DNA of 64,000 nucleotides from Phoronis australis. Its lineage: Eukaryota > Animalia > Phoronida. Under the pieces are notes generated by a model, which was given only the letters and a program-made list of their open reading frames with translations, was not told the DNA's origin and did not search any database. Each line of letters starts with the position of its first letter. Position 1 is the stretch's first letter. The stretch lies in contig NMRA01000378.1 of assembly GCA_002633005.1 (NCBI GenBank), forward strand, positions 1 through 64,000, written 5' to 3'. Both the position numbers and the translations under genes were made by a program. This document shows positions 1 through 61,539 of the stretch, one piece after another.

Positions 1-330
1 TTTACTTTTGAAATCACTTTTGAATATCCGTTAAAATGCGCTAAAACAGTTGTCCCTTCCTGGTTATCTCTTCCTGATGTAGGTCAATAGAGCGTAGACA
101 CGGCAAAATTTCATATTAAAACTGAATCGTGGAAAGTACAACCTTTAAAAGCAAGCACAACAATTCCTTTCAAAACAATATTTAATGTCCCGAGTATTAG
201 CGTATAAACAATAAAGATAAGATGTACAGCTTCAGTCCCGGAAAAGCAAATTATGCAAAACTCGGTCCTACCTAACACCCAGGTGAGGGCACATTGAGAG
301 CTCACGGCAACTTTTCCAATAAGATCTTAC

Positions 331-976
331 CCGAGCAATCAGAGGCAACCATCCTCTTTGCAAGTGCGTTAAGATGTGTGTAGTCAGGTAGAGTGATCAT
401 AAACTTAGACTTGGGTTCGCTTGCGATATCCACCAGGTGTCTGACGTGAAACAAAGAGCGAGTGGAAACCACGTACATAGCTGCGTTCATCTGTCTTAGT
501 TCATCAACCACTGCTGGAAGTTTGTCCAAATGCGCGTTAACAGGTCCATCATCTGTGACGAGAATACCAATTTTTGGAACGTTTGGCCTGGACTTGTGAC
601 GGAAACTGTCGAGTAGCATTTGGAGCGCTTCAACTGTGTTGGTTTTTAATCTGGCTATTCTCTCTGCACTCTTGTACAGCCAATTTAAGGCAAGCAGTAC
701 ACTGTTCTTGTCGGAAGACAAAGACAACACTTCGAGAGGAGCACTGTTGTAGATGATGACTCCAGTACGGTATTCCGTCGAACTGATAGCAAGTTTATCC
801 ACGACGTCCATGGCAAACTGCATTGTGTGGCGAACATTACTCGGTCCTATGCTGGACGATATGTCAAGAACAAATACCAAGTCAGCCCTCTGAAAGCATG
901 ACAGCTGTTGACCGAAAATAATATCACCAGTCCATATGGATAAGGTGGTAAATATTACCAATACTGTGTTGGCCAT
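331..976 (-). CDS. Secreted von Willebrand factor A (VWA) domain protein, first coding exon; gene continues past the left edge
   Basis: ATG at 976 gives a signal-peptide-like MANTVLVIFTTLSIWTGDIIFG. It is followed by ADLVFVLDISSSIG (MIDAS DxSxS), TNTVEAL, RPNVPKIGILVTDDG and LVDIASEP. A phase-1 donor G|GTAAGA follows ...SDCS at 331/330, so the ORF tail to 302 is probably intron read-through. Confidence 0.85.
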
Positions 977-2103
977 CTTTGAGTCAAAGTACAATAACGC
1001 CGACCTAAATTAGTGCAAGCCAACGCTATCTCACATTAAACCCACTATCTATATTTCGAGTCGTGTAATCGTCATTTGTAGGGGCCCCGCCTTTGAGACC
1101 CAGTTTGCTCCGCTAAATAACGGGCATCAAATTTCTCAAAATCCGGGAACCATGATTATCGCCTCGAACTGTGTCAATCTAAGGTCGCTTTACGTACAGA
1201 AACCTGCCGGGGTCCGGGGTCTTATCTCCAGACTCGCACAGCTAGTCAAATTGCTTTCGACACTTAGTTGTACTTTAATACAGTCAAAACAAGACTCCGT
1301 ATCAGCGTGATGCACTACAAGATTGCAACTATTTTTCGGGGTACAAACTCGCGCTTTTGAGTAAGACTCGGTATAGTGGTTTCGATGCTGCGGTTATAAA
1401 GTGTAAACTAGGACTAGACATCAACCACAAAACTATGAACACTGGTCGTGAGTTCGAAACAGCAGAGAATAAATAGTTTGCAATTGGTGTTTGAAAATCA
1501 AATCACAGGTCCTGACACGTTTACTTGGTAACGTTTCACTATTACTCCGGAGTCTTACGCCGTCGGTTACACAAGGAAAGTTGGTTCTGCCAATATTTCC
1601 ATTAGATGACGGTAACCACGGCAGGTAAAAACTACTGTGAAGACAAAATGCTACATTACTGGTATTTAATATTAACGTTTACCCCGTCTCCCTGTCCCTC
1701 TCTGTATCCCTACGTCTTCCCCCCTCCCCGTCTGTCATTTACTTGAGGACAACTATAGCAGGCTATGTATATCAAGAGGCATTTGCACCAACGAACAAAT
1801 TTCAAAATGGAAAAGTGCAAGTTCAAGGAAAATTATATTGGAATTCCAATCAGTTAAACAGATGCCAGCACACGAAATACAACAAAACATGTTAACTGTG
1901 TGCTTACAATATCACAAGTGAATAATGAAACAAACCAACATCAATAAATAAAAATTCGAAAAACCTGACAAATATTACAAACTCAGCATTACAAATGCCA
2001 GACAGTCTTATTTTTCTTTCACACACGTGTCCGAGGGATCACACGTGTGAACAAACTAGCATACTCTGCTGCTTATGGAATATCTGTACTAAGAGCATTA
2101 ACT

Positions 2104-3279
2104 TCAACCTTTCTTCCAAATCCACACAGGCTGCGGCAGCCTCTTTTTATGGGCCAGATAGCCAATTACACCTTTGTTCTGAGCATTCGGAAACTTGTCG
2201 ACATCGTTAACCATGCGGAGGGTATAGTCCGGCTTGCCCTTGATGTCATTTATAACTACACAACAGTAACCACCAGGTTGGAGGTACGACCAGGCTTTCT
2301 TCAAAGAAAACAACAAGAATTCATTGTACCATTTCTCTAGACTGCCCAGTTTGTGTGACTGTGTCTCTTCGTCACAATAAACCTCCAAGTCGAAATAGGG
2401 CGGGCTAGTAAAGATTAGGTCGTATTTTACACTAGGTATCAATGCTTTCTCAAAGGGGGCTTTAATCATGCAGAACCGGGGCAACGGCGGTGATGTTTCG
2501 GTAAACAAATCTTTTCGATTTTTGTACGGCAGCAAAGGTAAAAAGGTTTTGATCATTTTGTCGTAATTCGGGTGTAAGGCACTGTACGGATCAACACCGC
2601 AATAAAACTCAACGTCCGCTGCCATTGCACCAATCAGGCGATCACCCCATCCTGCGCACATGTCGAGCACGCGCGTGCGGTTGAGTTCCCGTATGAACTC
2701 TACCATAAGGGTTGGCCGGAAGGAGGTTGCTTCACCAGTGGCCTTCAGTTCATAGACACTTTCTCGGAGTTCATAGGGAGTTAAATTAAGGAGGTCATCG
2801 GGACCACTCAAACAAACGTCTTTGTCTGTAAGCAAGTCACGTAAACCACACGAGTGTTTCGTATATCTACTCCTATGTGGGTCGTTCTTTTTAGCTCGAT
2901 TAAGTGCATGTGTCAAAACCTTTTCTGGGTGGCTGAGCCAAAAATCATATGGGGAAGATTCGGCGTCATATCGTTTCGCTCGGACACGTGCTTCCTCTTG
3001 AAAGTAGTCGCTGATAACGTCATATTTAAAGTAGTCTTCTGATTTGCACTTCAGAACAAGAGGCGCAGTGTGACCTTGGTTGTCATGAAATACAAGATCA
3101 CGAGACGACACTTGCGGCAAATGAGCAATGGTGAACGGCTTGGTAGATACTGTGAAATGGTACAGTTTTAAATCTTCGAAGCTTGCTTTTACTTCATCAA
3201 TGCTGATAAAATACCGTTTGTAAGGAAATTCTAATTTCTTCTCTCTAATCAGCCGAACGATTTCTTCCATTACAATCAT
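2104..3279 (-). CDS. SPPY-motif amino-methyltransferase (N4-cytosine/N6-adenine DNA MTase-like, prokaryote/giant-virus type)
   Basis: Intact 391-aa ORF with SAM-binding motif I RVLDMCAGWGDRLIGA, motif II YCGVDP, catalytic motif IV YDLIFTSPPYF and AWSYLQPGG. Candidate 5'UTR intron 3293-3395 (AAG|GTAAAA...TTTCAG|). Confidence 0.85.
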   Translation of the reverse strand: MIVMEEIVRLIREKKLEFPYKRYFISIDEVKASFEDLKLYHFTVSTKPFTIAHLPQVSSRDLVFHDNQGHTAPLVLKCKSEDYFKYDVISDYFQEEARVRAKRYDAESSPYDFWLSHPEKVLTHALNRAKKNDPHRSRYTKHSCGLRDLLTDKDVCLSGPDDLLNLTPYELRESVYELKATGEATSFRPTLMVEFIRELNRTRVLDMCAGWGDRLIGAMAADVEFYCGVDPYSALHPNYDKMIKTFLPLLPYKNRKDLFTETSPPLPRFCMIKAPFEKALIPSVKYDLIFTSPPYFDLEVYCDEETQSHKLGSLEKWYNEFLLFSLKKAWSYLQPGGYCCVVINDIKGKPDYTLRMVNDVDKFPNAQNKGVIGYLAHKKRLPQPVWIWKKG

Positions 3280-5017
3280 GGTCGCTCATAATCTGAAACA
3301 GAAATTATGAAATAAGCCAAGTGGATTAACGGAAAGATTGGCACATGCACAAACGTTGATAAGATTTTACAACTCGGACATCTCAAGCGTTTTACCTTAA
3401 ATGCGAGCAGTCACCATAATATAAGCAATTAACTAGGTCTTCGAGCAGCATACAACTGGATGCCTTATTTATGTGCAAAGTGCACGTGAATGCGGATCAT
3501 GTGCACGCGTTTTGAGCGCCCAACTTGTTTCGCGCGATACGGCAGATGAATGCTATATTCAATGTCTGCCTTTATAACATTTATCTGCTACAAATACCGA
3601 AAGTACGCTCTGCACGTGCACGAAATCAGCCTCGCCAATCTCGTATTCACACGGATCGTTAACTCAAAAAGCGCTGTATTATTGCACGTCTGGGAGGAAC
3701 GGGGATAGCATGTATTAGCCGATCAGACAACCTAATGAATGACAACGTGATGAGTGCTAAAATAAATATTTCCCACAAGTTACGCTCTTAAGTTGAAACG
3801 AGGTCAGACCACACGTGAAATGTAAAGGATTGTCACAAACTCTTTGATTGCTACACACTACAGTATTAATTTTTGTACCGCATTTCCAAATACCGATATT
3901 TTTGTAAGAAACAAAGGGGAGTTTTAATAACGCATGGTTTGCCGTGAATTGATTTTGATCGCCCGAGGCGGCACTATGCAGGGTTAGGTACCTTTGAGCA
4001 TATAAATTCTGGGGCATTCATATTTTGATGGAAAGTGATTACTTGTTTGGGAAAATAAAATACGTTCCAGACTAGGGGACTTGAAATTTAATGTTTTCCG
4101 TGATTATATAATAAGACTGGACTGGAGATTGTCAGCACTGAAGTTTTGGGATGTTGGGCCGTTTCCGAAGATTGACTTTTCATAGGAAAATCAAAACACA
4201 TAAAACAACGCAAGTTTTTCTCGGACTATGTTAACAATGGGAATCGAGATTTACATAATCTTGTTGCATTAGTTTAAATATTTTAATATTTCTTGGGCTT
4301 TCAAGTTTCCTCAGTTACGCATGGTTATAAGCTTCAAGATATACATGTATGACGTACAAGTACAGATGCCGAATCAGATAATGACACCTCCAGAAAATTA
4401 CAATTCTCAAAGCACACGCTACTAACTTCGCATGCGCACACCCAACCTTTAATATGGGGGGGGGGGGGNAAAAAAAAGGGGTACCACCTTCACTGTGCGT
4501 CTACGCCTGTTTAGTGGACTTTTGTCTCGTTTTCTCGGACTTTTTGTTTCTCTGAGGCGGACCTTTTTGCCCACTTCGCCAAATGGGGGGCTCGTTCGAG
4601 CCCCGAGCTTCCCTGGGTGCACTTTTAAGCCGATTCCACTAAACGTTTATAACTGCCTAACAGCATATTGAACAAAAGCACCAGTGGAATATGTATCTAT
4701 TCCACAAAGTGTCTAAGCACTTCACTGATTAGTAAAGTAGCATCATATGGGTATATTCATATGTTCTAATTTTAAAATGTGCAATACATATTTTCCAATG
4801 AAGCAGAGCGCATGTGATACTGTTAGATTGGCGCACAGATGCATTTGCTCGGATCTTTCTCAACTCGGTTCACCAATGCAAGGATTCATTTTGTTTCGTA
4901 CAAGAACCAGATCAACCTGCACTGTGTATAACATCAAGTTTAGTAATTCCCAAATCCTCCGTGAACTCGCATTATCAGTTTTCTCCATCATTCCAGATTT
5001 TGCGACAATTGGATATA

Positions 5018-5771
5018 TACGCAAAACGTACCGAGAGTGGCGTTGATGAAGTAATGTACATTTAGTACATTATTCCACGTATCGACCGAGACCGAAGGTC
5101 GAGGTCCATACGAGGAATAATGTGGAGAGGGATATTACTTCATCCACGCCAATCGAGGTGCGTTTTGTATTTATCCCATACGCATCAAATCCCTAAATTT
5201 CTTTCATTTTTTCGGCAGAATTTTAAATACGGTATTTCACCCAGACTGTTCACGTGGTGGATCACATCCTATATGTATCTACTTGCGCGTTAAGTTGCAA
5301 GTTTTCTTGAGTAAACGAAACAGTTTTGAAAGTAACGATTTATTACTTGAAAAGAGAAAACAAAGATGAAAACAACGGCAACTGTGCATTGAACTTGTAA
5401 CATCTGAAAATAGTAAAATAACAACATTTCAAATTCTAGTTACCGAGGAAGCGTCGCCCGAGTTGCAGACGACATATTTAGCAATTGAAAACTGAAACAG
5501 AACTGTCACATAATAAACGGTCCTGTTGCGGATGGATTGAGATCTGATTGCATGTTTAGTGTTACTCACACTGTTGCAAATGCATAACTTTTAACTATTT
5601 TCCGAAAGTTTTGATGATTTAACCGGCTATCGACGTTGAGTCGACATTGACCTACCTTTTGAACTTTCCGTGTCAGAGGTTGCTGTTGAAGTAGTGTGGG
5701 AGGTGAATACGGAAAATATTATTACATGGCCGTATTTCCCTCTACTGGTTTAAGGCTTATGGGATAAATAT
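5018..5771. mobile_element. Palindrome-bearing non-autonomous repeat
   Basis: An imperfect ~150-bp palindrome at 5018-5170 is centred on CGAGACCGAAGGTCG. TATTTATCCCATA (5168) is inverted as TATGGGATAAATA (~5759-5771). Confidence 0.45.
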
Positions 5772-6377
5772 AGGTTATTTCATGGCGAAGTCGTTATCTC
5801 CCGAATTCTAGAGCCCGAGTGGATTTTGAAGAATTATCGTGCGACTATACAAAGGACACGCCTGCGAAATCTGAGCAAATGGGTTTGTAAGCAACACAGT
5901 TAGGTAAACTTTTTAGGAAAATACACCATTTACCGTGTGCACGTGGTTATAAACCAGCCGGGCTTAAAAATCAAAGATTTTCATAAGACCACCTACCGTA
6001 TAATCATGGTACTAACTTTTCCCCCACACCCTGGTCTTGGGAACAACTGACAGCTGGTTATTACGTGAGATCATAATGGGTTAAAGTTGGATTGTCGCGC
6101 CGTGTCATTTTACCCGTGCCAAAAGCACACAGCCTCACTCAAGAACTACCGATCAGTCGCTTCTTTCATAGCCCAGGAACCATCCAATTGAATGCGAACT
6201 TTTAGACTGAATTGTTACTTTTTCGTCTGTAACGATGACGATGTTATGTTGGTTCAGTCATTCTCCATGTCAATTGGTTTTTACTGTTTTAGTGTTTTTT
6301 TTCGTTATTAATGTAATATTATTGTAATGTCTTGCATGTGTCGTGACGTCATGCCTAGCATTTAAACACGAACTTAA

Positions 6378-7673
6378 ATGCGAAGGCAACCTTTTTCATG
6401 TCATTTTTAGCAAAAATAGTGTTCGTTAATTATCTCAGACACATTTTTCACTTATTTACAGGTTTTCGTAATTTAATTAATTACTCGTCGTCTACTCCGG
6501 AAGTGACGTTTTGGGAGGCAAGAATTTCGCGCCAATTTCTTTTCATACAGTCTGACTGTGAGAGCAGTCGAGTCAGTCATTGTTCTACCTCGGATGTGAG
6601 AAGTTCGGTCGTCGTTTGCTTTTGTTTACGAGTCAGTCAACATGCCACACTGTTTCTGCCTACCGAGATGTTCTCATTATCGTCTCAAGTACACAGGAAG
6701 AACTGTCCCACTTGCCCGAGTGTCCCGCGACACACTCCCAGTGGATGGTGACTGCTTACATCCCGCCGTGCGACTCCCTCATCACACACGTGGCACTTTC
6801 TAAATAGCTCCAATACAAGTCCACAATAAACTTATCAAACTTAGGCTCACCGATCTGTTCATTGGATGACGAACTGTCCTTTTCACTGAGTGTCAAACTT
6901 TGCCTGTATTCACTCCCACTACTCAACATCGCTGCAGAGCTCTGGGCTAGAGACAACAGCACACGGGGAATCACTGCTAGTTCCTGGAATTGCACGCTAT
7001 GGGGTACGTTCGGAGGCATGGGTGACAGTAGATGAAGTGCCTCCAGGCACTGTTTATAGTGGCCACAGCTCGCGAGGCTTCTCGCTTCAAAAACGAACTT
7101 CTCGGGGATGGCGACGGTGCACTGCCGGTAATCAACAGCGACGGTATGAAACCCTTCTTTAGGCGTTGTTTCGCAGGGACCTTCATCAATTCAGCGTACA
7201 TACATCATGTATCTCTGTCGTAATCTGACGGCTGAAAATGCCTGCCACTGCTTTGTACGTTGCGTGGACGGGTAGCGCTGCGTTCTTCACACAAATGAGC
7301 TAGCCAAGTACGGCAAAGTGTGTCATCCTTCGGAAAGCGATGCAAGGTACCCAAAGCGCGTCTGAGACGATAATGAGTACATCCTGGTACGCAGCAACAG
7401 CATGGCATGTTAACTGACTCGTAAACAAAAGCAAACGACGACCGAACTTATCACATCCGAGGTAGAACAATGACCGACTTGACAGCTCTCACAGTCTGAC
7501 TGTATGAAAAGAAATTGGCGCGAAATTCTTGCCTCCCAAAACGTCACTTCCGGAGTAGAGGACGAGAAATTAATTAAATTACGAAAAGCTTTAATTAAGT
7601 GAAAAATGTGTCTGGGATAATCAACAGACCGTATTTTTGCTAAAAGTGACATGAAAAAAGGTTGCCTTCACCT
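6378..7673 (-). mobile_element. Non-autonomous Kolobok-like DNA transposon with degenerate THAP ORF (copy 1)
   Basis: TTAA flanks at 6374-6377 and 7674-7677, termini A(T/G)GCGAAGGCAACC...GGTTGCCTTCACCT, TIRs of ~270-300 bp. A frameshifted THAP starts at 7408 (MPCCCCVPGC...HRFPKD...W...RHF...LKKGFIPSL). Near-identical to 28168-29491 in opposite orientation. Confidence 0.85.
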
Positions 7674-8663
7674 TTAAGTGTTTCTAAAGGAACAACCCTA
7701 TTTCCATCAGCAGTTTTTCATAAAAAAACTCGCTCGGTGCGCTCTTTGTGAGTGATTGTGACTGCAAATGTGTTCTGAAACCCACGAATGAATTATAATG
7801 CAATCAAATTATAATGGAAGCCGGACCAGGTCCCAGGGAAGCCATGTGAGTGGTACTACCAACTGTGCAGTATGTTTTTCGCGCTGGGTGAAGAGGAACT
7901 AAAAGCAGTGATTGGATTGTGTGCAAACAAATTTCTGGACAATCCCAATCTATTGCTTTGGTAAAGCATTGGCCAGATGGATTTTATGGAACTGGAATTC
8001 CGCAAGTAGCGTTGTAAAAGATCACCGCATCCGCAAGGTTCAGCTGGTAACTAGATAAACCAACCTGCACAGTTGGTAAGTACACTGTAGAAACACAACT
8101 TGTAAAGTTACAAAATGATCAAGAACATCCTTGTTTTTGTGGTTAGACTTCGGGTACATTACTTGTTTAATGACAGGCATTGTGTTCGACATCACAAAGC
8201 CTAGACCGCGCTCAAATTTCCCGATCGGGGGGGTGCGAGTTAATCGATGTCGGCGAGCAGAGTTTACCTCAACAATTCGACAAGTATAAATTATAATACA
8301 CGACACGACAATGTTCTTTAATTGTTACATACAAAGCATGTACATGGTAGTACGATCGATTAGTTAAGAAGCGCATACATGTACATGCACTGTCTGCGGC
8401 CGGACTGAGAAATTCATTGGCGAAATGAACCGAACTTCGGCGGTTCTCAGACGTTCTTTCCAATTTCTAGAAAACAAGCAGTCACGAACTAAAAAAAATA
8501 AACCACAAATTGAATGTAGCAATATGGGTTCTGCATAGTCAGTTGTTTGATGTTATATATGAGTGTGCAAAACGATTAGGCCAGGTGATGCATTTTTCGA
8601 TTTGTGCCACGAGTGAATTATGCGACACAGTCAGGACCATAGACATCACACAGACCAGCCTCC

Positions 8664-8804
8664 CGTTCAGTAGCGCTAGGACCTCGCTAAAAAGCAAGAC
8701 TTCGCGAGATTACGTGAGATATTGCCGTGTATTTTAAATGAGAACACGTGACTTTGACTAGGTTTGATCTAGGTCCTAGCGTAGGTCCTAGCGTCTACTG
8801 AACG
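8664..8804. mobile_element. Small MITE-like inverted repeat
   Basis: CGTTCAGTAGCGCTAGGACCT and AGGTCCTAGCGTCTACTGAACG form inverted ends about 140 bp apart. Confidence 0.45.
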
Positions 8805-9685
8805 CACGCCGGACGCGCGCCACTCAGATACATGTAACTCGCGTTGCCAATATGACGCCATATTCAGTTGGAGAGTGCTACACAGGACAAAAATGACGGA
8901 AAACACTGGGAGCCCTACGGCATCAGTCAGGAAATGCGGGGGCTCGCAGTGTTATGCCTGCAGCCAAAACGTAATGTTTTTTGGTCCTGCCGTTGAGTCA
9001 TGGGTTTTTTGGTTCGGCCATGGAGTTTAGTGGTGCTGCAACTAGGTTTTTATGTTCTGCCACCATAGTTTAAGCGGAGCGACTATATGCGTTGTTTCCA
9101 CATCAGTCTTGGTGATTGAGACCATATAAGTTCAATTAAAAAGATAATTATTGACCACCATATGCTGTTATCCAATGATGATGCTGTTATCCAGTGATAA
9201 CGTAGTTTGCTAATTATATTTAAGTAAATAATTTGGTATTAATGACAATCATATGTATTTTTACTTATACTGAAAAATAACATCCCGAATTTACTCGCCA
9301 GCCATCGAAATCAGTGAACAATGTACTCTCTATTCAAATATAGACTGATTTAAAAACTTATTTCTTAATATGTATTCCAAAATCAGATGTTTTCTGTTGT
9401 ATCAAAACAAACACATCCCTGCGAAATCTGTACTTGTGTCGAAGTTCATATTAGAAATTTTGTAGATTTGCTTACGAGCTCTCTGTTTTGTGACGAAAAC
9501 TTGGGCAAATAGGCTAAGTAAAGCGCACAGTTACCGAAATATCAAACCTGTACGACTGAATTGCGCATCCAACCTGTACCCAAAATACAGAATTTCCCAC
9601 TCGAAACCGAATGGAATATACCCAACCGAGCCGAGGTAGCATTTATTATGACAATCTATTCCGTCCGAACGTACCAACGTACTTG

Positions 9686-9728
9686 GTTTGACCAATGAGC
9701 TATACCTGGTATAGCTCATTGGTTTGAC
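9686..9728. mobile_element. 29-bp hairpin with 7-bp direct repeats, probable P-superfamily excision footprint
   Basis: GTTTGAC|CAATGAGCTATACC-T-GGTATAGCTCATTG|GTTTGAC: CA...TG termini, perfect 14-bp arms and a 7-bp TSD. Confidence 0.6.
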
Positions 9729-11955
9729 AATACATGCGATCGGTTATAAGCCTGGTAATTTATCTGCATGTTGTCCTACCAGACAAAAGAGTATGCTGGG
9801 CAGTTTACAAAGGAGCTAGATGTTAACACACGCTCACAACAGCTGTACTGAAAGGGAGAACGCCCTAATGAATTTCAAAATCCTGTCACTTATTTATATG
9901 ACCCCAATGAGGTCTTTTTTCAAAGCAGTTCACATCAAATTTAGAACCCCTTAAAAGCGACCCGGATCATATTTTAATTTAATTGTTCAACACTCAGTGA
10001 AAAGGCTTATTGCGGCACCACGAAAGTATGTCCTGAGTGAGTGGCACGTCTCCTAGTCCTGGATACAATGTATTTGCACCGAGCGACACGAATTAAATGA
10101 TAAATTTGCGCGATCTCAGTGGTTTCTCTTGAAAAAAACGAAACTCAGGCTAATTTTGCTGCTTTTGCCTGCCCTCTAGCGTGGGAAGAAAGAACTGGAT
10201 GTTCTGTTACAGAATGGATCTGGTCAAGGTAAATAGACGCAAAATGAATCGCATTTTGTGGTATGCTGCGTTAAACCGGGTTAAAGGATCGGGCATTAAA
10301 ATAATAAAACTAATTAATTTATAAACCGGAATTAATCCGTTTTAGGATTCTAAACATGAATTCAATTATTAAAGTCCAAGAAGCACACGTTGTTAGCCCT
10401 TATTACATGGTTAGAGGACGTTATAAGGATCCAAGAAGTACCTACCCCATAATTAACTAATACACAATCCGTAATCGAATACAGTTTAAATAAACGAGTC
10501 ACTCACGATTCGGACCCGAAGAACACACCGCCATTTTGAACTTACCGCGAACCCGGAAGTACAATTCATTCAGGAACCCCGGCTGTACTACGCCGTCTGT
10601 GCGACCGAAGTGTCTGTTACCAGCCTGCAAACGGGAATAAAATAATCGACAGCGCGCCTTAACGTTAATAAAATCAAACACGGATAATTGTATCGAAATT
10701 GCTGACGAAATGTGGCGAATAAATTTTGACAGAAATTATTTTGCCGGACTCGGGGCTTGCAACCGATCGGACCCCGTGCGGACCGAGACCAGACACTGTC
10801 GAACGGTAAAGGCATGCGGTTGCTAGCTGTTTTGTTGAAGTAAATGTTCAAATCATAAATGCCGTATACATACAAAGGTAGTTTCAGACACTTGCTTAAA
10901 AGTACGGGCTGGTTAGTCCTGTGTCACACTGCCGCGGCAGCCCTTAAGTTAGGTTAGCTAGCCAGCTACCAGTATGAAGATCGACTATCGTCGTAATATA
11001 CAGCTTTGCGCCAAGGCTACCCTTAGGCCTACGTGGTCCCTGGCCACAGCGCTCGCTCAAACGAGGCTTATTTAGAGCTTGGGGTCTTCTGGCGAACTGT
11101 GCAAAGTTGTTGACTTTCAAGAGAGATTTGCCCAGACTTTGAATGAGCGCACCAAGCCTACTAAATAATGGGGGACTCCATTTTTTGAGAATGTGTACCT
11201 TTTACAGTAAGATTCACTGGGTGTGTTCAGAGCTATGAATTGCAGACGCCAAATTTTGGTACTTCCCGTCTTCTAGTGGACTCTTGTCTCGTTTTCTACT
11301 TTTTCGGAGTTCTTGCTTCTCTGAATGAGGCAGACCCATTTCCATTTCTCCAAATAGGGGGCTCGTTCGAGCACATAAGTATGACAAGCCCAATACAAAA
11401 TGTTATCATTCTTATTTATTAAGCAGTGAGTACGAAGGAAGTGACCGTACAACTGAACCACGTCGATAATTGTAATTTGAGTGGAGGTTGCAATCTCAAT
11501 GGCAGAATTGCAAAAAAAAACACGAAAGGAAAGACTTCTAGTGAACTTCGTTTTCAACTGTTTGATGTTTTTTTAATATATTTATTAATTTATTGAAATA
11601 ATAGTAAACCCAAGGCATCAAGAAATGTTGCCTGAAGATGCTAGTTTCTTTTTTGTAGTCAACGTTTGTCAAAATGTATCAATGTGAAATTTTCAAAAAT
11701 TACAAAGTATCCGGTTGAACATGCCTTTCAGCTCAGCCAAACTCGCCATGTTGTCGGTGCCGGCAGAAATGAGACCAAGTCCAACGGGAATTGACCTATC
11801 GCCGGGATTATGACGGACGGATTAATTGACCAATCAGAACGCAGCATCCTTGGCACACCTTCGTCTGCGTTTCCAAGCCGCCATTTTACCCGACAAACCG
11901 CACGTAGTCGAGTAAACTTACTTTAGTCTATAGCTCAAGAAATTGTCCGCTAAGA

Positions 11956-12130
11956 ATGGGGAAACGGTGTTGATATGACGTGTGTAGCCCCGACAGCCGT
12001 TATGCTGCTCCAGAATAATATCCCGTCATTTTTTGGCTTGCCCTAAGTCGAAAAATGATGTTGAAAATCGTAAACTATGGATCAAACTGCCTGTACGGCC
12101 ACACGAGCAGCTGAACTTAGCGATGTTGCT
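11956..12130 (+). pseudogene. Degenerate THAP-type zinc finger from a DNA transposon
   Basis: MGKRC*YDVCSPDSRY then, after a frameshift, CPKSKNDVENRKLWIK..RPHEQLN. This matches the transposon THAP N-terminal pattern C-x4-C...FPK...W but has stops and frameshifts. Confidence 0.6.
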
Positions 12131-12850
12131 TGATAACTCGAAGGCTATAATAAACACAAATATATTAGTTCCTAGATACGCACTTTTCAGCTCGGTGGCT
12201 ATGGTGCAGGGCTATCTCAGATTTTGACTCCCGAGTTGGCTACGTCTGGCCGCCTTTGTCTCGGCACCTGCTGGATCTCAGCACTCTAGCGGTAGTCCCC
12301 GGAAATTGTTGTTTTTGAGGACATTTTTATTTTATTTTTTTATTTATTTCAACCTAATGGACATTATTTTGTTTCGTATCAGAGGTACATTTTTGTTATT
12401 CATAAACCGTAAGCTGGCGTTCAACTGAACTTATCTCCCGGTCAAAATTCCGAGATTCGATCGGCACAGAGAAGGGCACTGGATTACTGCCGGAACCCAA
12501 AGCCTTGGTCGAGCTGTTGTCACTAAAAATAAACTGTTGAATTACTTTTTGAGGTGTACCTCTAGCATACACTATGTCTGTAGAGTTAGAGAGAGCTCAT
12601 TTTGGTGTGGTTCAAACATGATATTTAGATTTATGAAGCTTTAAAAAAGAATTTGAGTTATTTTTGTAAATACCCTGTTTTTGCAACTACCACACCAGAC
12701 TTGTAATCTTTTGTAACCATACTACGACTTAGTGATCATGCTACCTTCAAAATTAAATGAAAGCTATCTTTATGGAATGAAACTACAAAAAATGCCAAGT
12801 TCGTACGAAGGTAGGCCTAATTTAAATGTCTTTAATGGTGCAAACGGTTC

Positions 12851-13163
12851 CATAGGTGGATTTAGGGGGGGTGGGGCAGCCCCCCCCCCGCAAGCAAAAT
12901 GAAAGAGCAAGAGCGTGAAGCGTGAGGAAATATTGAGTTCAGTAACTAGGACCAGTAGCGGAAGAGGGGGGCTCAGACCCCAGATCGCGGCGGAATCGTG
13001 TTCCTGTTTTTTCTAGTCCACCGATAGATTTTCTGAACAGAAGGTCCAAAGGTCAGCATCCCCGGCCCCTGCAACTTTCAAGCCGCCTGTGTACATACAT
13101 ACATTTTGCCCAATTCCACGAGGCAACATGTTGGACCCCCCTTGTGGTATCCTAGATTCACTG
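12851..13163 (+). mobile_element. MITE of the CA(T/G)(A/T)GGCGGAT(T/C)TAGG family
   Basis: Begins CATAGGTGGATTTAGGGGG and ends ...TATCCTAGATTCACTG. The ends are shared with copies at ~33218, 34379 and 58798. Confidence 0.5.
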
Positions 13164-15268
13164 CACCGCCACGGACGATAGCCGCACAAATAAGAAGTTC
13201 ATGTTAATTCAACGTTTCGTCTATTTATTAGACATCATCAAGACAATCATATACAAAAGACAGCAAGTATCAACATACAGCTCAGGTAACATCCATAAGG
13301 TGGCACTGTACAGTTAGGCTGCGGCCGCGGCTAATTTGCACAGCCAAAATATTAAAATCTAGGGGTAGGCCAGGCTTGGGGGCATTTTTTAGTTAGGTAT
13401 TGTGAGTTGGCCAAGTGAATGTAGTGTGTTTGTATTTGTGAACATGATGAGAATAAAAAGGCCACTTTCTCGGCTGTAGCTGCACTCTTCTTCAAGATGG
13501 TGGTCCCCTGATGGAATTGTGCATGGCTGCGTAGTAAATGAGAAATTGGCCGCGATTTCAGGTAGCCCTCAAACAAGCCAGATTTACAAAAAACTAGTTG
13601 GTTGACAGTACTTTTGGACCACATTTTTGTAATCGGATGTTGGCTTTAGTCCATCATAGGCAGGGAAGTGGTTTTTTTGGGGTGAAAAGTGCCGATTGTG
13701 CATTTTTTGACTTCATTTTTCTTAGTCTAACTTGGTTTTTACTGGGTGTGAAAGGGTAAAAAATACAAGAGAATAAAGTTTTTGTGCTCATCTGTAGGGC
13801 TTGTGATGTGAAATGACTCAAAACGGACACATGACAAACGATTCTTGGCATTCACTAAGAATATAGCTCAAAGAAGTCGCCGTCAGGTAAAAGCAAAAAT
13901 ACACACAAAAATGCAGATGTGTGATTAAAAATTACTATGGAACCTTCTAAGTCATAGAATGAGACGTTTTCCATATTAGGACTTTCGATGGATGGTTTCA
14001 AATTATTTGACGAAGCGTTAAGACGAGCAAAATGGTTTTGGTAACAAATGATACCAAACGAAATGGGAAGAAACAGACTGGGCTTTACTGCCTCTCAATA
14101 CAGATCTGCATGGTACTTAGCGTCCATGAACTATGCACCTCTAATACCTATTAATCATCGAGTTTGACCGACTGAGAAGTGAACGTGAAGCGAAGACTTT
14201 GTCACTGATAACCATGCAAATCTCTCTGGGATAACTTATCTTTGACCAAACGCCCAGTGACAACGACGCAGGGATTGGTATTACTTTACAAATTTATTCA
14301 AAATAAAGACATGAAATAAACATGAATAAGCACACACTATTTACACACAATTTACACGTTCTTCCAACATGCATTACGCAAATACGTGACGGTACTCTCA
14401 AATTAAATCGCATACAATGGATGACAGCAGAAGAATAAACACTAATTAGGACACGTAGACTGACAATGAACACACTTTATACAGAACATTCACTATTTCA
14501 AACTATTTTGTAATATCAAATTGTGTCATAAGACCACCTGAGGACACAACACAACTGTGGAGTTCTAAATGTTCTGGATATCATGACTTATTTACAAATG
14601 ATCGTAAAACGAGAAAAGTTTTACAAGACAGAATGATTACCTGCGAGTGGTCAGTTGAGATTCAACTGAAAACACATAACGTACATGGTCCCTGGTTTTA
14701 TTTAATACTAAGTAAACACTACATGTGACACGTTGCGCTCACTCTTCATGCAAGAAGACAGCGCAAGCTCATTCTCTAATACACTATATCAACAAATCAC
14801 GCAAATATTCGACACCTTCGTATTGTCATGGTTACTAACAGCAGACTTCCACAAACAATAACTGATTCAGCTAATTGTCCTTCAGTATGTGCATGTCGTG
14901 CCGTGTTACATCCGTCCCTTCATGCGCAAGTTAAGAGGACTTTTGTTTAGCTTGACCTAACTAAAATGGACACGCTCAGTATTTACAAATAGAGGTGATC
15001 TCTGTTCAGATCACAGCCCCGGACATGTGCCCTGGCTCCTGGATAATTTACAGTTTCAGCCCATAGACTAAACCACTCTTTTCGGCAGAACATGTTTTTG
15101 TAAGAAGTTATTTACTGAGAGATGGATTAATCCCCATCACCATGTTCATACATGTACAAACAGCTTCGTGTACAAGCAGCAAGTGTGGCGGCGAGGTGAT
15201 AACCTTACAGAACAAGGTACATAGTGACATTCCCTCCTGACGTACAGGATGTAGACAGGAAGACGCAT

Positions 15269-28167: not shown

Positions 28168-29491
28168 AGGCGAAGGCAACCTTTTTTCATGTCACTTTTA
28201 ACAAAAATAAGGTTCGTTGATTACCCCAGACACATTTTGCACTCAATTACAACTTTTCGTAATTTGATTAATTTCTCGCCCTCTACTCCGGAAGTGACGT
28301 TTTGGGAGGCAAGAGTTTCCCGCCAATTTCTTTTCATTATAGTCTGACTGTGAGAGCTGTCGAGTCAGTCACTGTTCTACCTCGTTTGTGATAAGTTCGG
28401 TCGTCGTTTGCTTTTTTTTACAAGTCAGTCAACATGCCACGCTGTTGCTGCGTGCCGGGATGTACTCATTATCGTCTCACACGCGCTTTGGGTACCTTGT
28501 GTCGCTTTCCGAAGGATGACACACTTCGCCGTACTTGGCTAGCTCGTTCATGTGAAGAACACAGCGCTACCCGTCCACGCAACGTACAAAGCAATGGAGG
28601 GTTATCGAGTGTGTGTGTGGCAAGAATTTTCTGCTGTCAGATTATGACAGATATGTACGCTGAATTGATGAAGGTCCCTGCGAAACAACGCCTGAAGAAG
28701 GGTACCATACCGTCGCTGTTGATTCCCGGCAGTGCCCCATCGCCAATCCCGAGAAGTGCGTTTTTGAAGCGAGAAACCTCGCGAGCTGTGGCGACTATAT
28801 ACAGTGACTGGAGGCACTTCATCTACCGTTACCCGTGCCTCCGAGCGTACACCATTGCGTGCAATTCCGGGAACTAGCAGTGATTGGCCCTGTGCTGTTT
28901 TCTCTAGCCCAGAGCCTGTAAGCAGCCCTGCATCGATGTTGAGTAGTGGGAGTGAATACAGGCCCAGTTCGACACCCAGTGAAGAGGACAGTTTGACAGC
29001 CAATGAACAGATCGGTGAGCCTAAGTTTGATAAGTTTATTGTGGACTTGTATTGGAGCTTTTGGAAGGTGCCAGGTGTGTGGTGCGGGAGTCACACGGCG
29101 GGATGTAAGCAGTTTGGGTGCTCAGATCACCCTCCAGTGGGAGTGTGTCGCGGGACACTCGGGCAAGTGGGACAGTTCTTCCTCTGTACGTGAGACGATA
29201 ATGGGTACACCCCAGTACGTAGCAACAGCGTGGCATGTTGACTGACTTGTAAACGACGACCGAACTTATCACAACCGAGGTAGAACAATGACTGACTCGA
29301 CTGCTCTCACAGTCAGACTATATGAAAAGAAATTGGCGCGAAATTCTTGCCTCCCAAAACGTCACTTCCGGCGTAGACGACGAGTAATTAATTAAATTAC
29401 AAAAAGCAGTGAATAAGTGAAAAATATGTGTGGAATAATCAACGAAACTTATTTTTGCTAAAAATGACATGAAAAAAGGTTGCCTTCGCCT
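28168..29491 (+). mobile_element. Non-autonomous Kolobok-like DNA transposon with THAP ORF (copy 2), nested in the P-like pseudogene
   Basis: TTAA|AGGCGAAGGCAACC...GGTTGCCTTCGCCT|TTAA with ~300-bp TIRs. THAP-like ORF 28434-28877 (MPRCCCVPGC...FPKD...W...LKKGTIPSL). Confidence 0.88.
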
Positions 29492-37802: not shown

Positions 37803-40424
37803 TTACAGCGAAATGAGAGTTGGCGAATTCAGCACATCTGGGCTACTATCGCTAGAATTCCTCTGCTGGGCCGAACACGTCGGTGTCAGACCTGTGCGCA
37901 TTAAACCCTCACTCATGGGAGTTAGGCCAGTCCTGCCCTCAAGGGAGTCAAGACCAAACGAAAACATGCCACTGGACGGCGTAGTGATGGGAACTCCGAT
38001 CTCCGAGCTAGGGTCAATGGGCTCTTGCTTAACGACGACCGGCTTTAGGATGGGAAGAGACTGTGGACGGCTAGGTTTGTCTTCATCGTCAGCGTTCATC
38101 TTCTCAGGTGCCTTGCACATAGGCTTGTGCGCTTGAAGGAGGAACTCCAATTGTTCTTTCTGTTGCTGTAGCGTCTTTATTTGCAACTCCAGACTGCTCG
38201 TTTCCTCTTCTAGCTCCTCAGTTTCCTGTAAGGATTTAAATATTGGCATTGGAGTTATTCGGTTATTACATGAACGGTGTCATTAGATAAAAATAAAAAT
38301 AAATGAGAATTGGACAAACATAAAAACACTCTAACATTTCTACCTAATTGTTTGCTCGAATATTCAAATATGAAAACACTAAAATGTCTTCTTATTGTAA
38401 ACATATTTGGTTCAAGAGAAATAGAATGTTGACCGTCTCATTAGTTTAATTCATTTGATGCACTCAAATATCGAGCAAACACTACAACCAATTACCAACC
38501 TAACAAATTATGACAGCAAACGTGAATATCTTGTCAAAAAAGACGTAGCAGTAATTTGACAGCAACATCAATGAATATCATATGAGCAAGAAAAAGGAGG
38601 ACTCACGTTTATTAGCTCGTTAGTATGGTCTACACGTCTTTGGCGACATTTGGCGGCCGCCATCTTATTGCGTTCACGGCGAATTTGTCTACGCCTCAGT
38701 TCTTCTGGGCTCAGGCGCTGGAAAAATATAAGACCATTCAGAAACTTAAAACAACATTAATCACTTTAAATAAAAAATTAGGACAACTAAAATTCACACC
38801 CAGTAATGAGGGAGGGAAGACCGAGGAGGTCAGTCTGAGGTCAACATCCGACCATTACCGGAAGTCATTGCCGAGTTCAAAGAGTCAACCGGTACACTAT
38901 TGTTTACACCGATGTTTACGGGGGCAGCCTTGTTGTGAACACCGGAATGTTTGTTTACCTTGGGTTACAAAGTACAGGCTGGAATTTCCAGGAAGATTGC
39001 GTAAGGTTCATTTCATCTAACGAGTCATCGACGTTCATAACATCCGACTGCGAATTAAAAATACACGTACTTTCACGTTCCTGGCCCGCAGTAAGGCGAA
39101 CAAGACAGTTGAGATTCAAATTGGACCGATTTTTTAAATTTGATTCGTTTTTAAAAGTCAGGACCTTTGATCACGGTATAAAAATGACTCAAAAAATCGC
39201 GTGTCCTTGCAATTTCGAACAATAATCACCGGTGTTTTTAATCGATGACTTCCAAAAAGTAGTGGTCATAAGAGCACCCACATTTGTAAGAACTCAAGTT
39301 GTTCGCTACAAATTTATGCGTTTGTTGAAAAATCAAAACAATGTAAAATATCGAAACACCTGGTTTAACTTCAATTCCATACATTTCGAAAACCAATAGA
39401 AGTGGTAAAAAGTATTCAGTCACTTAAATTGGCACTGACATGGTGGATTAAGAGAATTTCATAAAAACTTACTGGATCGTCCTTAGATCTCCTTCCACCA
39501 CCCCTGCGCGGAGCAGGCGCCGGGACTTCGTAAGGGTTGACGGAGAAAGTCGGACGACTAGCGGGCTTCCTTCTTGAAGTTGTCAAAGGTACCCACTCTG
39601 GGTCATTGTCATCCATACGTGACACTGGATCAATAACTGGCGGCACGAAGCCGCTACGAGTGCGTGGCACGGTCAAATCTTGGGCAACAGGCATGTCGAA
39701 AGTGCGCTCCAGACTGGCGAGTGTCGTCGGCGTCAAGGTGGGCGTGGATAAAGTGGAGATTACACTGAACTGCTGAAAAAGAATATAGCGTCATATATCA
39801 ATGCAATAAATAAGCACTGGAATTTTTATTGCCTCTTCACGTGGTTTGCAAACAATACAACTGCGTATTATGAAAGCGCGATGGATGGAATGACCGTTGA
39901 ACCCGCATAGTAATGGCATGCGACAGTTTGACCTAGTTCAATACTAACTGCCCAGCTGGCTTGTGTGCATGCATGTAACACAGCGCGAAGCAACAACATA
40001 CTAAATTTCTATAGCATCAGCGTAAATTATCTCAACTTAACGAGTATGAATGAAATAGCATTAAATATGCCAGTACGTGTTAATATTTCCTATGGTGTAG
40101 GATTTCAACGGACTTAAAATTGGTAGTAGATATTTCTTTGTTAGCGCCATGTTGGAAATCGTCCAAGTGAGCGAAGAATTCAGTTGGATGCAAGTGCGCC
40201 AACAACACTCGCCCGCACAACAGTAAAACTCCAGTAGACTATTTTGTAACAAGAACAGTATACATAAAATGTCCAACGGTGCAGAAAGACAGACGACAGA
40301 ACAAGGGCAGAAATCGTGTAATACTCACTGTCGGTGTAATAGGTTGTCCGTTCGCCATGCTTGATAAAATATCTGCCACAGTATACTTGGAGTCGGCGTA
40401 AGTGACTGGATCCATTTTGTACAT
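37803..40424 (-). CDS. fos: Fos-family bZIP transcription factor (4 coding exons)
   Basis: Exon 40424-40329 encodes MYKMDP...ITPT. Exon 39772-39473 encodes [20 protein letters not shown]...SGFVPP. Exon 38717-38607 encodes [37 protein letters not shown]. Exon 38225-37803 encodes ETEELEEE...[16 protein letters not shown]...SPTLISL*, the Fos C-terminal signature. All introns are GT-AG phase 0. Confidence 0.95.
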
Positions 40425-40840: not shown

Positions 40841-42197
40841 AATGCTAAAGTTTTAGTGTCCATGTAAATTTAATAAAAACTAAAACCTTTATTTCTCAGC
40901 ACTCTCCAAATGCCAATTCCCAACTTGAACAACTACACGCGGGACGCTGTCCACTTAAATTGTGATTCGCTTGTATTTACAACAACATTAAATGCCTGAC
41001 CAAAACCTGGGAGTATTATTGGTCCTAGCCAAAACCAAGATTATGTGCAAATTCCAGAATTGTTTGGATGGTTAAATTTGATAACAGAAAGTTGAGACTA
41101 ACGTTGTATGCAAATGTTTGCATTTAACCATAACATGAAATTGTGATATGACCTCTTTTCAGGAAAGGAAGAAAGAACAAAAAATAATTTTCTCCTATTA
41201 GTTTTCATGCAACTATTGTTTTTTTAATAAACAAAGACGGACGATTTCAATGGCCGTTTCCAAATGAAATAAGATTTTAATACAAGTTATCCATGACGTT
41301 GTCGTGGAAAACCAGACAAACTTCAATAAACTGCGACACTAGCAGGTGAACATCGGTTTGGGAAGCTCAAGCCGTTATTAATTTGCCCTGCGGTGAGTCG
41401 CTGTTGTTTTGTAACAGAAATACCGTATTGAGGTCAAAGCCGGTTCAACCCAGGCTGAGGATTGGTCACGTGTTTTGTGTTAGATACAATGAATGTGCTG
41501 TAGCAACAGTGGATGTATAGTCATATACTTGATCAAAATATTTACCGCCGCTGCGCATGTGCAAGTTATGGGAGAGAGATTCACGATCATCCACAGAATT
41601 CAATAGGTAATTATCATATCATTTTCCCTCGAATATGTTTCTAATATCGTCAGGTTCAAAGTGCAGTAAAAACTAGTTGACGTCGTTGGTTCAAAAGCGA
41701 TTGTGAAGCTTTAGAATCTGATGGGAGCTTCTTGGTTTAGCATGTCATGGCGAAGCCACTCTTTTTAACTCACTGAACCCACGGTCAGTGCCACACTGGT
41801 GCGAGATATATCTCCTCAAGCAATTGTTCCGACACATGTTACATACCAAAGTCTCTCCACCTTCCAAAGGCAGGGGAGATTGTTCTCGTTTTGTTACAAA
41901 TAAGAATTTTGTCTGGGGATGGTCCATCAATATCAATGCGAACCGAACGTCTATTTATAGGCATAGCACGTATAATAGCAGCCGCATTGTGCCGAGTGAA
42001 CGTTGTGTAGGTAACCTAAAAGGAGTTGTATATCGCCTTCTCACCACGAGTAGGATTTACTGGCACAACAACACTGAACTTACGTACACTGTACTGGCGA
42101 CATCTGCTCCTTTTCAGAGCTCCAAGTTCCATAGTCTGGGTGTCCTGAGCTGAATCGGCGAACACGCCATTATAATCGTCGACCTGGTGTGGAATCA

Positions 42198-43661
42198 ATG
42201 ATGGCGAATTCAACTACCAAGGAAATCATTGCGACATCTAGTTACCGCTATGATGTTACGGCTACTACCATTTCAACGGACAACCTTACACAGTCCACAA
42301 ACGACAGTTTGGCTTTAGACATAGGTTTATTAACAAACGGTACAAATGGTACAACTAACACCACGCTATGGCCGCCAGTCACGAGCGGGGTGTTTATTGA
42401 TTTTGGACCAACAGTTCTCGCAATGGCGCTGATTCTAATCGCCACCGCAAGTCTGACGATGAACACTTTAATTCTGATCATTTTTGGGCGAGGGTCACAT
42501 TCGAGAAAACGAGTGTTTTACTTCATGGTAGAGCTGGCTGCATTCGACTGCAGCGCCACTTGCCTGTGGACAGTGTTAACAATTGTTCAGATGTTGATAG
42601 ACCACATGTATTTGGGTGATCCCAGGAAGACATGGTTATCTCTGACTGGTGTTATATGCATGGTTCAAGCATACACTATGTCAATCGTGGCGCTTGTCAA
42701 TATGTATACCCTGTTTGTTATGAGCTTCGAAAGATGCGTTAGGCTAGTCAAGCCATCAAAACATCATGAAATATTTGGAGGTAACAAGACTGTAACTGCA
42801 GTCATCATGCTCACTGTATTTTTGTATTGTTTTACAATAACAATTTTCCCATTGCTGGGTTTTGGAAGCATGGCAGAGTTTGTAAACCAATACCAGTGTT
42901 CCTGGAATTTTGAAGTGAGCTCTTCGCATCAAAATTTTCTGTTTGTGGTTGGATTTGTTTTACCACTTACAGGCAGCATTGTTTGTCACGTGATATGTAT
43001 CTTTAAAGCCAAAAAAATAAGTGGCCAAGTACATCCGGGTGAAACTATGGTGATAGAGGAGAATAAAGACATTCCTCAGTTGACATATGCTCAAAAATTG
43101 AAGAAGATGGAAAACAAATTCAAATATTCTCATCAAAAGATGAAAAAGCGCAAAGGCAAGGAGCGGATTCGTAAAGACTCAAGCGACTCCAGTAGTGACA
43201 GCGATGAAGACGAGGCTGAGAGACGCTATAAAGAAAAACAAAGAAAAAAGCAAAAACGACTTTATAAATTCAAGCACGATGATTTTAAATTAGCCGTCTC
43301 ATTCATTGTTATAACATTTCTAAACTTTTTCTGTTGGCTGCCGTATTTCATTGTCGGCTATATCTGGGTTGTGCCCGGTTATTCTACAGTCAGCGATGCG
43401 GTGTTTGCGGTTGTCATATTTCTCTGTCACTTCACAACTATATTGAAGCCGATAGTTTATCTCACTAACGCAAGACTGAGGCATTTCGCCCGTCAAGCGC
43501 TATCTAGACGTCAGACCGATAACCTGGAGGGCAAAGACTATCGCAAGGAACAAACGGAGACGGCCGATAACGATAAGGTCAACGGACACTATCCTGAAGA
43601 TCTGCCTGGTTCTCGCAGGTCGTCTGTCTCATCTAGTTCTAAAGAACGAAGTGAAAAGTGA
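42198..43661 (+). CDS. Class A (rhodopsin-family) orphan GPCR, single coding exon
   Basis: N-glycosylated Thr-rich N-terminus and seven hydrophobic segments. Motifs: TM3 C...MSFERC, TM4 FPLLGFG, ECL2 QCSWNF, TM6 FFCWLPYF, TM7 KPIVY, helix 8 NARLR. First ATG is at 42198. Confidence 0.92.
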   Translation: MMANSTTKEIIATSSYRYDVTATTISTDNLTQSTNDSLALDIGLLTNGTNGTTNTTLWPPVTSGVFIDFGPTVLAMALILIATASLTMNTLILIIFGRGSHSRKRVFYFMVELAAFDCSATCLWTVLTIVQMLIDHMYLGDPRKTWLSLTGVICMVQAYTMSIVALVNMYTLFVMSFERCVRLVKPSKHHEIFGGNKTVTAVIMLTVFLYCFTITIFPLLGFGSMAEFVNQYQCSWNFEVSSSHQNFLFVVGFVLPLTGSIVCHVICIFKAKKISGQVHPGETMVIEENKDIPQLTYAQKLKKMENKFKYSHQKMKKRKGKERIRKDSSDSSSDSDEDEAERRYKEKQRKKQKRLYKFKHDDFKLAVSFIVITFLNFFCWLPYFIVGYIWVVPGYSTVSDAVFAVVIFLCHFTTILKPIVYLTNARLRHFARQALSRRQTDNLEGKDYRKEQTETADNDKVNGHYPEDLPGSRRSSVSSSSKERSEK

Positions 43662-60809: not shown

Positions 60810-61463
60810 AGTGTGGTTGGAGTCAAGAATGGTATAGTCAAATGCCTTGCATCAAGATCAAAGGAAATCTGCAGTGATACAGCACACCAAGCAGAAATGA
60901 CCAACCTGACGGAGACATTCGAAAGAAATGTCTACCAAGGGATTTTATCAAGTCGGCTTTAACATCGCAGAAGAAAGACAAAGTGGCAGAAGAACGCCCA
61001 CTGCAGGCTATGTGCTTACCGTATATACCCGGAATAACCGAGAAGCTAGGACGCATATGTAGAGAATTTAAAATAAGAACAGTATACTGCAGGTCAGACA
61101 CACTGGGTCGGATGGACAAAAGTCAAACCAAGAACTGACATGGAAAAAAGAAAAATGTCATCTATGAAATCCCATGTGAATGTGGTGAATCGTATATCAG
61201 TGAAACATTAAGACCACTGGAGACAAGAATTGCTGAGCATAAGAGGAGTTGTAGAGAAGGTAATACCTCATCAGAAGTAGCAGAACACATGTGGTCGAAA
61301 CAACACAACATCCAGTGGAATAACATCCGAATACTTGACAATGAAACAGGTTGGACCAAGAGAAAGATCAAGGAAGCCATGTACATGAAAGTACAAGGCA
61401 ATGTCTTCAGTCAGCCAAGCAAACAACCAAGTGACACCTGGCTCAGTCTACTTAGGAAGGTTT
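60810..61463 (+). mobile_element. Penelope-like retroelement fragment (RT C-terminus + GIY-YIG endonuclease)
   Basis: VKNGIVKCLASRSKEICS...LPYIPGITEKLGRICREFKIR...VIYEIPCECGESYISETLRPLETRIAEHKR...VAEHMWSKQHNIQW...RKIKEAMYM, frameshifted. Confidence 0.88.
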
Positions 61464-61539
61464 TTAAACCTTCCTAAGTAGACTGAGCCAGGAATTTTAT
61501 TGTACTTAAAAGTATATTAAAATTCCCTCTAAGTAATTG

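Follow-up and report, generated by a model that had tools for sequence, protein, structure and literature searches.

What does an intact and apparently foreign amino-methyltransferase gene do in the genome of the phoronid Phoronis australis, and where did it come from? The question is raised by the first 64,000 nucleotides of contig NMRA01000378.1 (GenBank assembly GCA_002633005.1; hereafter the window), in which a first-pass annotation had singled out a minus-strand open reading frame (ORF) as a domesticated DNA amino-methyltransferase of prokaryote or giant-virus type. The analysis described here points to a real domesticated gene, a foreign amino-methyltransferase tamed by the animal and probably acting on RNA caps. 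Judged by homology, the protein is a member of a large family of uncharacterised GWGDRL/SPPY amino-methyltransferases, found mostly in giant viruses, in which phage proteins form their own branch and protist copies occur here and there.

An intact, spliced and expressed animal gene

The gene and its transcript comprise the following features, in which SAM is S-adenosylmethionine and UTR an untranslated region:

2104..3279, minus strand: amino-methyltransferase ORF of the giant-virus GWGDRL/SPPY family, 391 aa, stop-free (from homologues and a structural model)
2635..2667, minus strand: motif I, the SAM-binding loop LDMCAGWGDRL, residues 205-215; D206 and G210-L215 are invariant in 68 aligned sequences
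2392..2409, minus strand: motif IV, catalytic TSPPYF, residues 291-296 (SPPY 292-295), assigned from the sequence
2704..3279, minus strand: family-specific N-terminal domain, residues 1-192, conserved in homologues and likely substrate-binding
3293..3395, minus strand: spliceosomal GT-AG intron of 103 nt in the 5'UTR (junction reads and sequence)
3396..3600, minus strand: non-coding exon 1 and start region, placed by read depth, the start lying somewhere within the bin 3401-3600
1935..2103, minus strand: 3'UTR, with the transcript end near 1935-1942 (five molecules begin at 1942 in run X7, and an X5 contig starts at 1935)

As the annotation had stated, the 391-aa frame is free of stops and motif I precedes TSPPYF. 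The "~190-aa N-terminal extension" that it described is present but is no extension or host addition: most of the homologues listed (best 120 of 1050) span 92-100% of the protein, which makes the N-terminal part a family trait, and P19 and R98 within it are invariant or nearly so in the family alignments. All 18 invariant family columns are kept by the P. australis protein in the 68-sequence alignment, which includes it, and SPPYF is the commonest form of motif IV (61/64 phage-clade rows and 297/442 other rows of a 506-row tree).

Three raw RNA runs from a separate study (X6, X7, and X8), chosen by species label, show strand-specific transcription on the strand expected for minus-strand RNA; expression, which the annotation had left to be checked, is thus seen in 3/3 runs. 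Coverage spans 1801-3400 in the three runs and reaches the bin 3401-3600 in two of them, with depths of 14 and 10 there and 0 in 3601-3800; the mean coding depth of 110, 77, and 21 corresponds to about 60, 47, and 13 reads per kilobase per million mapped reads. The predicted 103-bp 5'UTR intron, for which RNA-seq of the 3395/3293 junction had been proposed, is spliced, since in X6 the joint 3292/3396 is crossed by 54 reads with 33 starts and in X7 by 36 reads with 23 starts; for X8, where the 5' depth is low, no such read is listed. The coding region is without introns according to the ORF and the RNA read mapping. In the spliced leader, upstream ATGs occur at 3289, 3417, and 3451 on the minus strand; one of them lies 10 nt ahead of the main ATG in another frame, and an upstream frame of 20 codons would end two codons short of the main ATG, so these ATGs could dampen translation if exon 1 extends that far.

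The DNA is present in four runs from two samples of the same organism, one of which may be the source of the assembly, with 0.90-1.00 of the words sampled from it present in these runs. In another sample, the contigs differ at 2/317 coding versus 7/184 non-coding bases (Fisher p 0.014; small data), a weak hint of constraint on the gene. The GC content at third codon positions (GC3) is 0.48, against 0.44-0.53 in host genes, and the CpG content is also host-like. The gene is, in sum, an intact, spliced, and expressed animal gene.

Family, predicted structure and phylogenetic position

Homologues of the protein number 1050 at E<=0.001 among 3441 candidates, the best with E 4e-77 and 40% identity, and a family profile search retrieved 7327 clusters at 50% identity; the exact protein sequence has no entry in a collection of 15 billion sequences. 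In viral contigs, an alignment-based scan identified 599/612 pattern matches as relatives, where a single-sequence scan had found none; genomes assembled from metagenomes (MAGs) that are giant-virus by name account for 26/70 of the loci returned from these contigs, the best match among them. In prokaryotic genomes, relatives make up 14/600 pattern matches, all of them metagenome-assembled and mostly partial (21/64 parts scanned), and named phage genomes gave weak partial matches only (15/50,697 records, at most 28% identity). Named animal proteins are absent from the matches listed in three homologue lists, two of which give the best 120 matches each, out of 1050 and 1130; in the list drawn from the 1130, the result of a eukaryote-weighted profile search, two named protist proteins appear. 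Among the protist copies are those of Lithocolla and Stygiella, to which the eukaryote-like contigs L074 and L078 can be added. As a separate observation, a 642-aa family member adjoins a transketolase gene in a Parachlamydiaceae MAG (L151, 4566-6491).

A Pfam scan of the protein gave 15.4 bits for N6_N4_Mtase, below the cut-off of 26.7, and no other family at E<=1; in particular, no chromodomain or other chromatin reader, no PCIF1_WW or Methyltransf_15, and no THUMP domain were matched, and among NCBIfam models there was a sub-threshold match to TrmN only. The description "prokaryote/giant-virus type" stands in its second half, which homology and structure sustain, and lacks support in its first, given the 14/600 prokaryotic matches and the Pfam score. 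No published account of the activity of the family or of an animal copy was found, supplements lying outside the scope of the search (those of PMC4738411 and PMC7253447 may list members).

The predicted model of the 391-aa protein has a mean pLDDT (predicted local distance difference test) of 92, and the N-terminal domain folded alone one of 87. In BFVD, the model matches proteins of Satyrvirus, Pithovirus LCPAC, and salmon gill poxvirus over the full length (TMq 0.60-0.78, top nine rows), the fish poxvirus relative with TMq 0.74, which indicates that animal-infecting viruses carry the family. These are uncharacterised viral proteins with automatic names, and the P. australis gene differs from theirs in being a spliced host gene. 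The poxvirus protein SGPV186 is annotated as "DNA or RNA methyltransferase" with a best hit in Monosiga, according to PMC4542343; the 422-aa BFVD entry agrees with SGPV186 in length, by which the two are equated.

Solved structures match the Rossmann core only. The best core matches, with Z of 14-15.4 over about 175-185 residues, are METTL5 and the tRNA N2-guanine methyltransferases Trm11, Trm14, and TrmN (in particular TrmN with Z 15.4, root-mean-square deviation 2.4, 173 aligned residues; aTrm11 with Z 15.2, 3.2, and 177), in which the order of N-terminal domain, motif I, and motif IV is the same. However, the identity is 10-18%, the likeness is tied with that of unrelated O-methyltransferases, THUMP is not matched in Pfam, and the viral and patchy distribution of the family contrasts with the pan-eukaryotic one of these enzymes. 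The N-terminal domain has a best Z of 2.5 against the PDB (4 chains at Z>=2, no THUMP protein being listed among them) and no Foldseek match at E<=0.001, which does not show a new fold. Nothing here speaks for a place among the Trm11/THUMP enzymes, although the missing matches do not disprove one. With the family profile, the best PDB sequence match is the putative modification methylase 2zie (E 1e-5), structures of N4CMT being matched at E 0.16-0.36 only.

N4CMT of bdelloid rotifers is the nearest parallel in history, as an SPPY amino-methyltransferase that was horizontally acquired and kept in an animal genome; it is permuted, with the catalytic motif before the SAM-binding one, of bacterial beta type, fused to a chromodomain, and shown to make N4-methylcytosine (4mC) in DNA (PMC8885841). 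In contrast, the P. australis protein has motif I first, the N-terminal domain of a giant-virus family, no reader domain, and relatives linked to cap enzymes. Judged by motif order, Pfam score, and the missing chromodomain, it is neither N4CMT nor a beta-class enzyme.

A 50-row IQ-TREE phylogeny resolves three groups. The phages form one (100/100), and Lithocolla and Stygiella are joined in another by a protist contig and a number of viruses (96/86); the third, of 34 rows (95/94), unites the P. australis protein with Satyrvirus, loci of giant-virus MAGs, the capping-enzyme fusions, and a single eukaryote-like contig. The last trees left out the degenerate L078 paralogue as a long branch, and an 80-row tree was a quick one. 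An extra C-terminal helix, scored by a crude pattern, is found in 56/114 rows of the Lithocolla/Stygiella group versus 4/265 in the clade of the protein, which itself is without it.

Substrate and origin

The favoured reading, to which we would give about an even chance, is that the protein is a captured viral enzyme that N-methylates a base at or next to the 5' RNA cap. A gene of a nucleocytovirus would have reached the germ line and there acquired a promoter as well as the intron in its 5'UTR; the N-terminal domain of the product would grip the capped RNA end while SPPY positions the amino group, and a methyl would be moved from SAM to the exocyclic amine of the base at or next to the cap. 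The mark would most likely be a further methyl at N6 of the first adenosine, which would then carry two, or an N4-methyl on a cap-proximal cytosine, N2-guanine being possible, and we infer that some of the animal's own capped RNAs would serve as substrates. Methylation by SPPY-type motifs is directed at planar amino groups (PMC8885841), so the motif does not fix the substrate; it is the fusions to cap enzymes that would place the non-phage branch at the 5' end of viral mRNA. In the same viral polypeptides, the enzymes for 7-methylguanosine (m7G), cap-N2 methylation (N2-methylguanosine, m2G), N6,2'-O-dimethyladenosine (m6Am), and 2'-O methylation are already separate domains, and the family enzyme would therefore add a different mark. 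A second N6 methyl is attractive as the product because the kinetoplastid cap 4 contains N6,N6-dimethyladenosine, for which PMC11417388 gives the enzyme as unreported; the link to cap 4 is a hypothesis about the product only, no kinetoplastid protein by name being among the matches listed.

Cap-enzyme Pfam domains were counted by hand in 33/93 longer homologues with precomputed domains. In 28 long proteins that were scanned, most of them selected for their cap domains, the partners are separate domains of the same polypeptide, namely triphosphatase/guanylyltransferase/N7-methyltransferase, TGS1, PCIF1, VP39, and FtsJ; with five families of partners, there must have been no fewer than five fusion events. 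PCIF1/CAPAM and TGS1 are themselves cap amino-methyltransferases, fused to the family or beside it in giant viruses; the separate domains of the fusions and the lack of a Pfam match of the P. australis protein mark it as a different enzyme. In the 506-row tree, scored with local domain profiles seeded from the long proteins of the family and including duplicates and seeds, so that counts are sequences and not events, a cap domain is present in 44/442 non-phage rows versus 0/64 phage-clade rows (capping enzyme 14, PCIF1 13, FtsJ 10, VP39 6, TGS1 4); pyridoxal phosphate (PLP) enzyme and TTL domains are likewise found in 0/64 phage-clade rows. The P. australis protein resembles roughly half of the non-phage rows in being short and standing alone; 221/442 rows exceed 480 aa. 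Unfused copies may adjoin cap genes, as in L071 (capping enzyme, TGS1, VP39) and in L077 and L003 (PCIF1), and a cap gene is fused or within two genes in 8/100 non-phage loci; the sole phage-clade match to the guanylyltransferase profile, in L028, may be a ligase. Also in favour of the cap are the grouping of the protein with capping-enzyme fusions, apart from phages and from Lithocolla and Stygiella, and the RNA amino-methyltransferases TrmN and aTrm11 as top structural matches of the core. The RNA that the annotation had added in parentheses as a substrate thus seems, from the fusions of the non-phage branch, the better guess; its leading proposal, a DNA methyltransferase of prokaryotic type, is disfavoured by the same fusions, by the Pfam score, and by the rarity of the family in prokaryotes.

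In L071, the cap cluster of a giant virus occupies about 9 kb (5432-14700) with a capping enzyme, a family member, TGS1, another methyltransferase, and VP39. In L074 (7311-9992; ankyrin-DHHC neighbour), the family member has a C-terminal PLP-enzyme domain and a long arginine/serine-rich N-terminus, as in RNA-processing proteins; in L078 (4283-8445; RhoGEF neighbour), an intact family member adjoins a PLP enzyme fused to a degenerate copy without catalytic motifs. The phage-clade loci L015, L023, L025, L032, L035, L039, and L041 carry two to four tandem paralogues, which in L015, L035, and L039 lie among Dam, beta-class methylase, PLP-enzyme, asparagine-synthase-like, QueC-like, thymidylate-synthase-like, and ATPase-GNAT genes, a gene set that is a candidate undescribed DNA hypermodification cluster.

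Several points weigh against a captured cap enzyme. The commonest fused partner in the non-phage rows is not a cap enzyme but a PLP enzyme (91/442), and TTL ligase (12/442) and GNAT fusions also occur; the neighbourhood signal is weak, with a cap gene in 12/100 non-phage loci versus 7 for a capsid control; an O-methyltransferase (Z 15.3) ties structurally with the RNA amino-methyltransferases; and the phage branch, with the same SPPYF motif, sits in DNA-modification clusters, so the fold can very likely act on DNA. The captured gene may have changed its substrate, and the activity of family members, cap methylation included, is in every case predicted, the latter from fusions. As to the capture, the protein sits on a long branch, with different nearest neighbours from tree to tree, and approximately unbiased (AU) tests on a 42-row set rejected neither a grouping with Lithocolla (p 0.157) nor one with phages (p 0.22). 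For these last reasons, a nucleocytovirus is the favoured but unproven source of the gene, and the trees do not allow a donor family to be named. The independent horizontal capture that the annotation had proposed holds insofar as the lineage is separate from bdelloid N4CMT and has the opposite motif order, the capture itself being the favoured origin only.

A DNA amino-methyltransferase that writes 4mC or N6-methyladenine (6mA) on host chromatin seems unlikely, though the case for it has several parts: SPPY is catalytic in most bacterial N4C methyltransferases and in N4CMT (PMC8885841), 2zie leads the PDB sequence matches of the family profile, PHROG matches are labelled DNA methyltransferase and the automatic names in Atlas and BFVD read cytosine-N4, phage relatives adjoin Dam, beta-class methylase, thymidylate-synthase-like, and QueC-like genes, and some relatives are fused to SF2/SNF2 helicases. 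However, matches of the 2zie and PHROG kind are limited to the SPPY region and the names are automatic; one helicase fusion (P0164) also carries PCIF1; the non-phage branch is tied to cap enzymes; the protein has no chromatin reader; and no restriction-nuclease family was found among the domains of long homologues or in the scanned loci, divergent nucleases being able to escape Pfam. Of similarly low probability is a step in a hypermodification pathway, in which the enzyme would methylate the amine of an amino-acid-like adduct (or of a protein) made by a PLP enzyme, a GNAT, and an ATP-grasp ligase, a reading that covers an animal enzyme with or without these partners. The frequency of PLP fusions speaks for it, with the lysine motif GGTKQR kept in 44 fused PLP domains and nine non-phage rows (9/442) that combine PLP with PCIF1 or VP39, as do the PLP-enzyme neighbours in 3/39 phage-clade loci, the GNAT and TTL fusions, and the use of a related motif on glutamine by HemK/PrmC-type enzymes (PMC8885841); the stand-alone half of the non-phage rows and the lack of a PLP-enzyme partner within the 64-kb window speak against it. 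Outcomes beyond cap, DNA, and PLP-linked modification have a small probability.

With regard to origin alone, an old eukaryotic gene, vertically inherited and lost in most animals, is improbable. It would account for the copies in Lithocolla, Stygiella, L074, and L078, the Monosiga best hit of the poxvirus gene (PMC4542343), and the host-like GC3, and the AU test did not reject a clade with Lithocolla; nonetheless, two starred branches stand between the protein and the Lithocolla/Stygiella group, whose extra C-terminal helix it does not share, its coding region is intronless, and the homologue lists show no named animal protein. Far less probable, and already largely refuted, is contamination or a viral remnant that is recent and without function: other animals yielded no orthologue in the homologue lists, and long-range DNA linkage to the flanking genes was sought in contigs and not obtained, but the presence of a spliceosomal intron, the expression from one strand in all three raw-read samples of a separate study, the DNA in two samples, the conservation of every invariant family column, the lower number of coding differences in the small data set, and the window, in which no other viral remnants occur, all argue against it.

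The surrounding window and the significance of the gene

One gene lies downstream on the same strand:

302..994, minus strand: VWA-domain host gene (Pfam VWA PF00092, E 2e-25)

This is the animal VWA neighbour that the annotation had recognised. It is weakly expressed (depth about 2-13 in X6 and X7), and the zero depth at 1201-1800 between the two genes indicates separate transcripts. The annotation was also right that terminal inverted repeats and viral neighbours are lacking: none of the 13 short inverted pairs in 900-6000 brackets the gene, and outside the gene locus the window gave no tblastn match to any of 1643 ORFs taken from related loci of viruses and metagenomes, nor to any of 358 homologous proteins. 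The E2F-like TTTCGCGC is present at 3528-3535; the same 8-mer occurs 7 times in the window, and TTTSSCGC occurs 13 times versus 6.1 expected, for which reason the site was rejected as evidence of E2F control.

Otherwise, the window consists of ordinary animal DNA. It includes a rhodopsin-family G protein-coupled receptor in a single frame (42135-43661, E 2e-27), a THAP-domain frame (28395-28877, E 4e-07) with a related broken copy at 7205-7408, apparently one repeated element, and an uninterrupted thermolysin-type frame on the minus strand (49876-51177, Peptidase_M4, E 8e-25), a possible second foreign gene of a family that we take to be mostly bacterial. Exons at 37803-38279 and 39416-39790 resemble those of a Fos/ATF3-type bZIP gene, which Pfam did not confirm, and a fragment at 61139-61477 is similar to a Penelope-type GIY-YIG nuclease, with no Pfam match at 0.01.

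The chemistry of animal caps is thought to be restricted to a handful of marks. Tentatively, and at rather less than an even chance, an animal lineage may have domesticated a giant-virus cap-hypermethylating enzyme and carry an RNA-cap base mark new to animals, e.g., N6,N6-dimethyladenosine or N4-methylcytosine; if so, the protein would be the first member open to testing in a viral enzyme family that numbers thousands, and would offer a candidate chemistry for the dimethylation of cap 4. The eukaryotic captures of foreign amino-methyltransferases named in the literature examined concern bacterial or prokaryotic DNA methyltransferases, in a rotifer (PMC8885841), a liverwort, and early fungi, whereas here a giant-virus source is favoured. 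As a spliced, well-expressed, single-domain copy, the gene is an easy assay subject for a family of more than 7000 clusters at 50% identity, and either outcome would matter, be it a cap mark not seen before in an animal or a second route, independent of the first, by which animal DNA comes to carry 4mC or 6mA.

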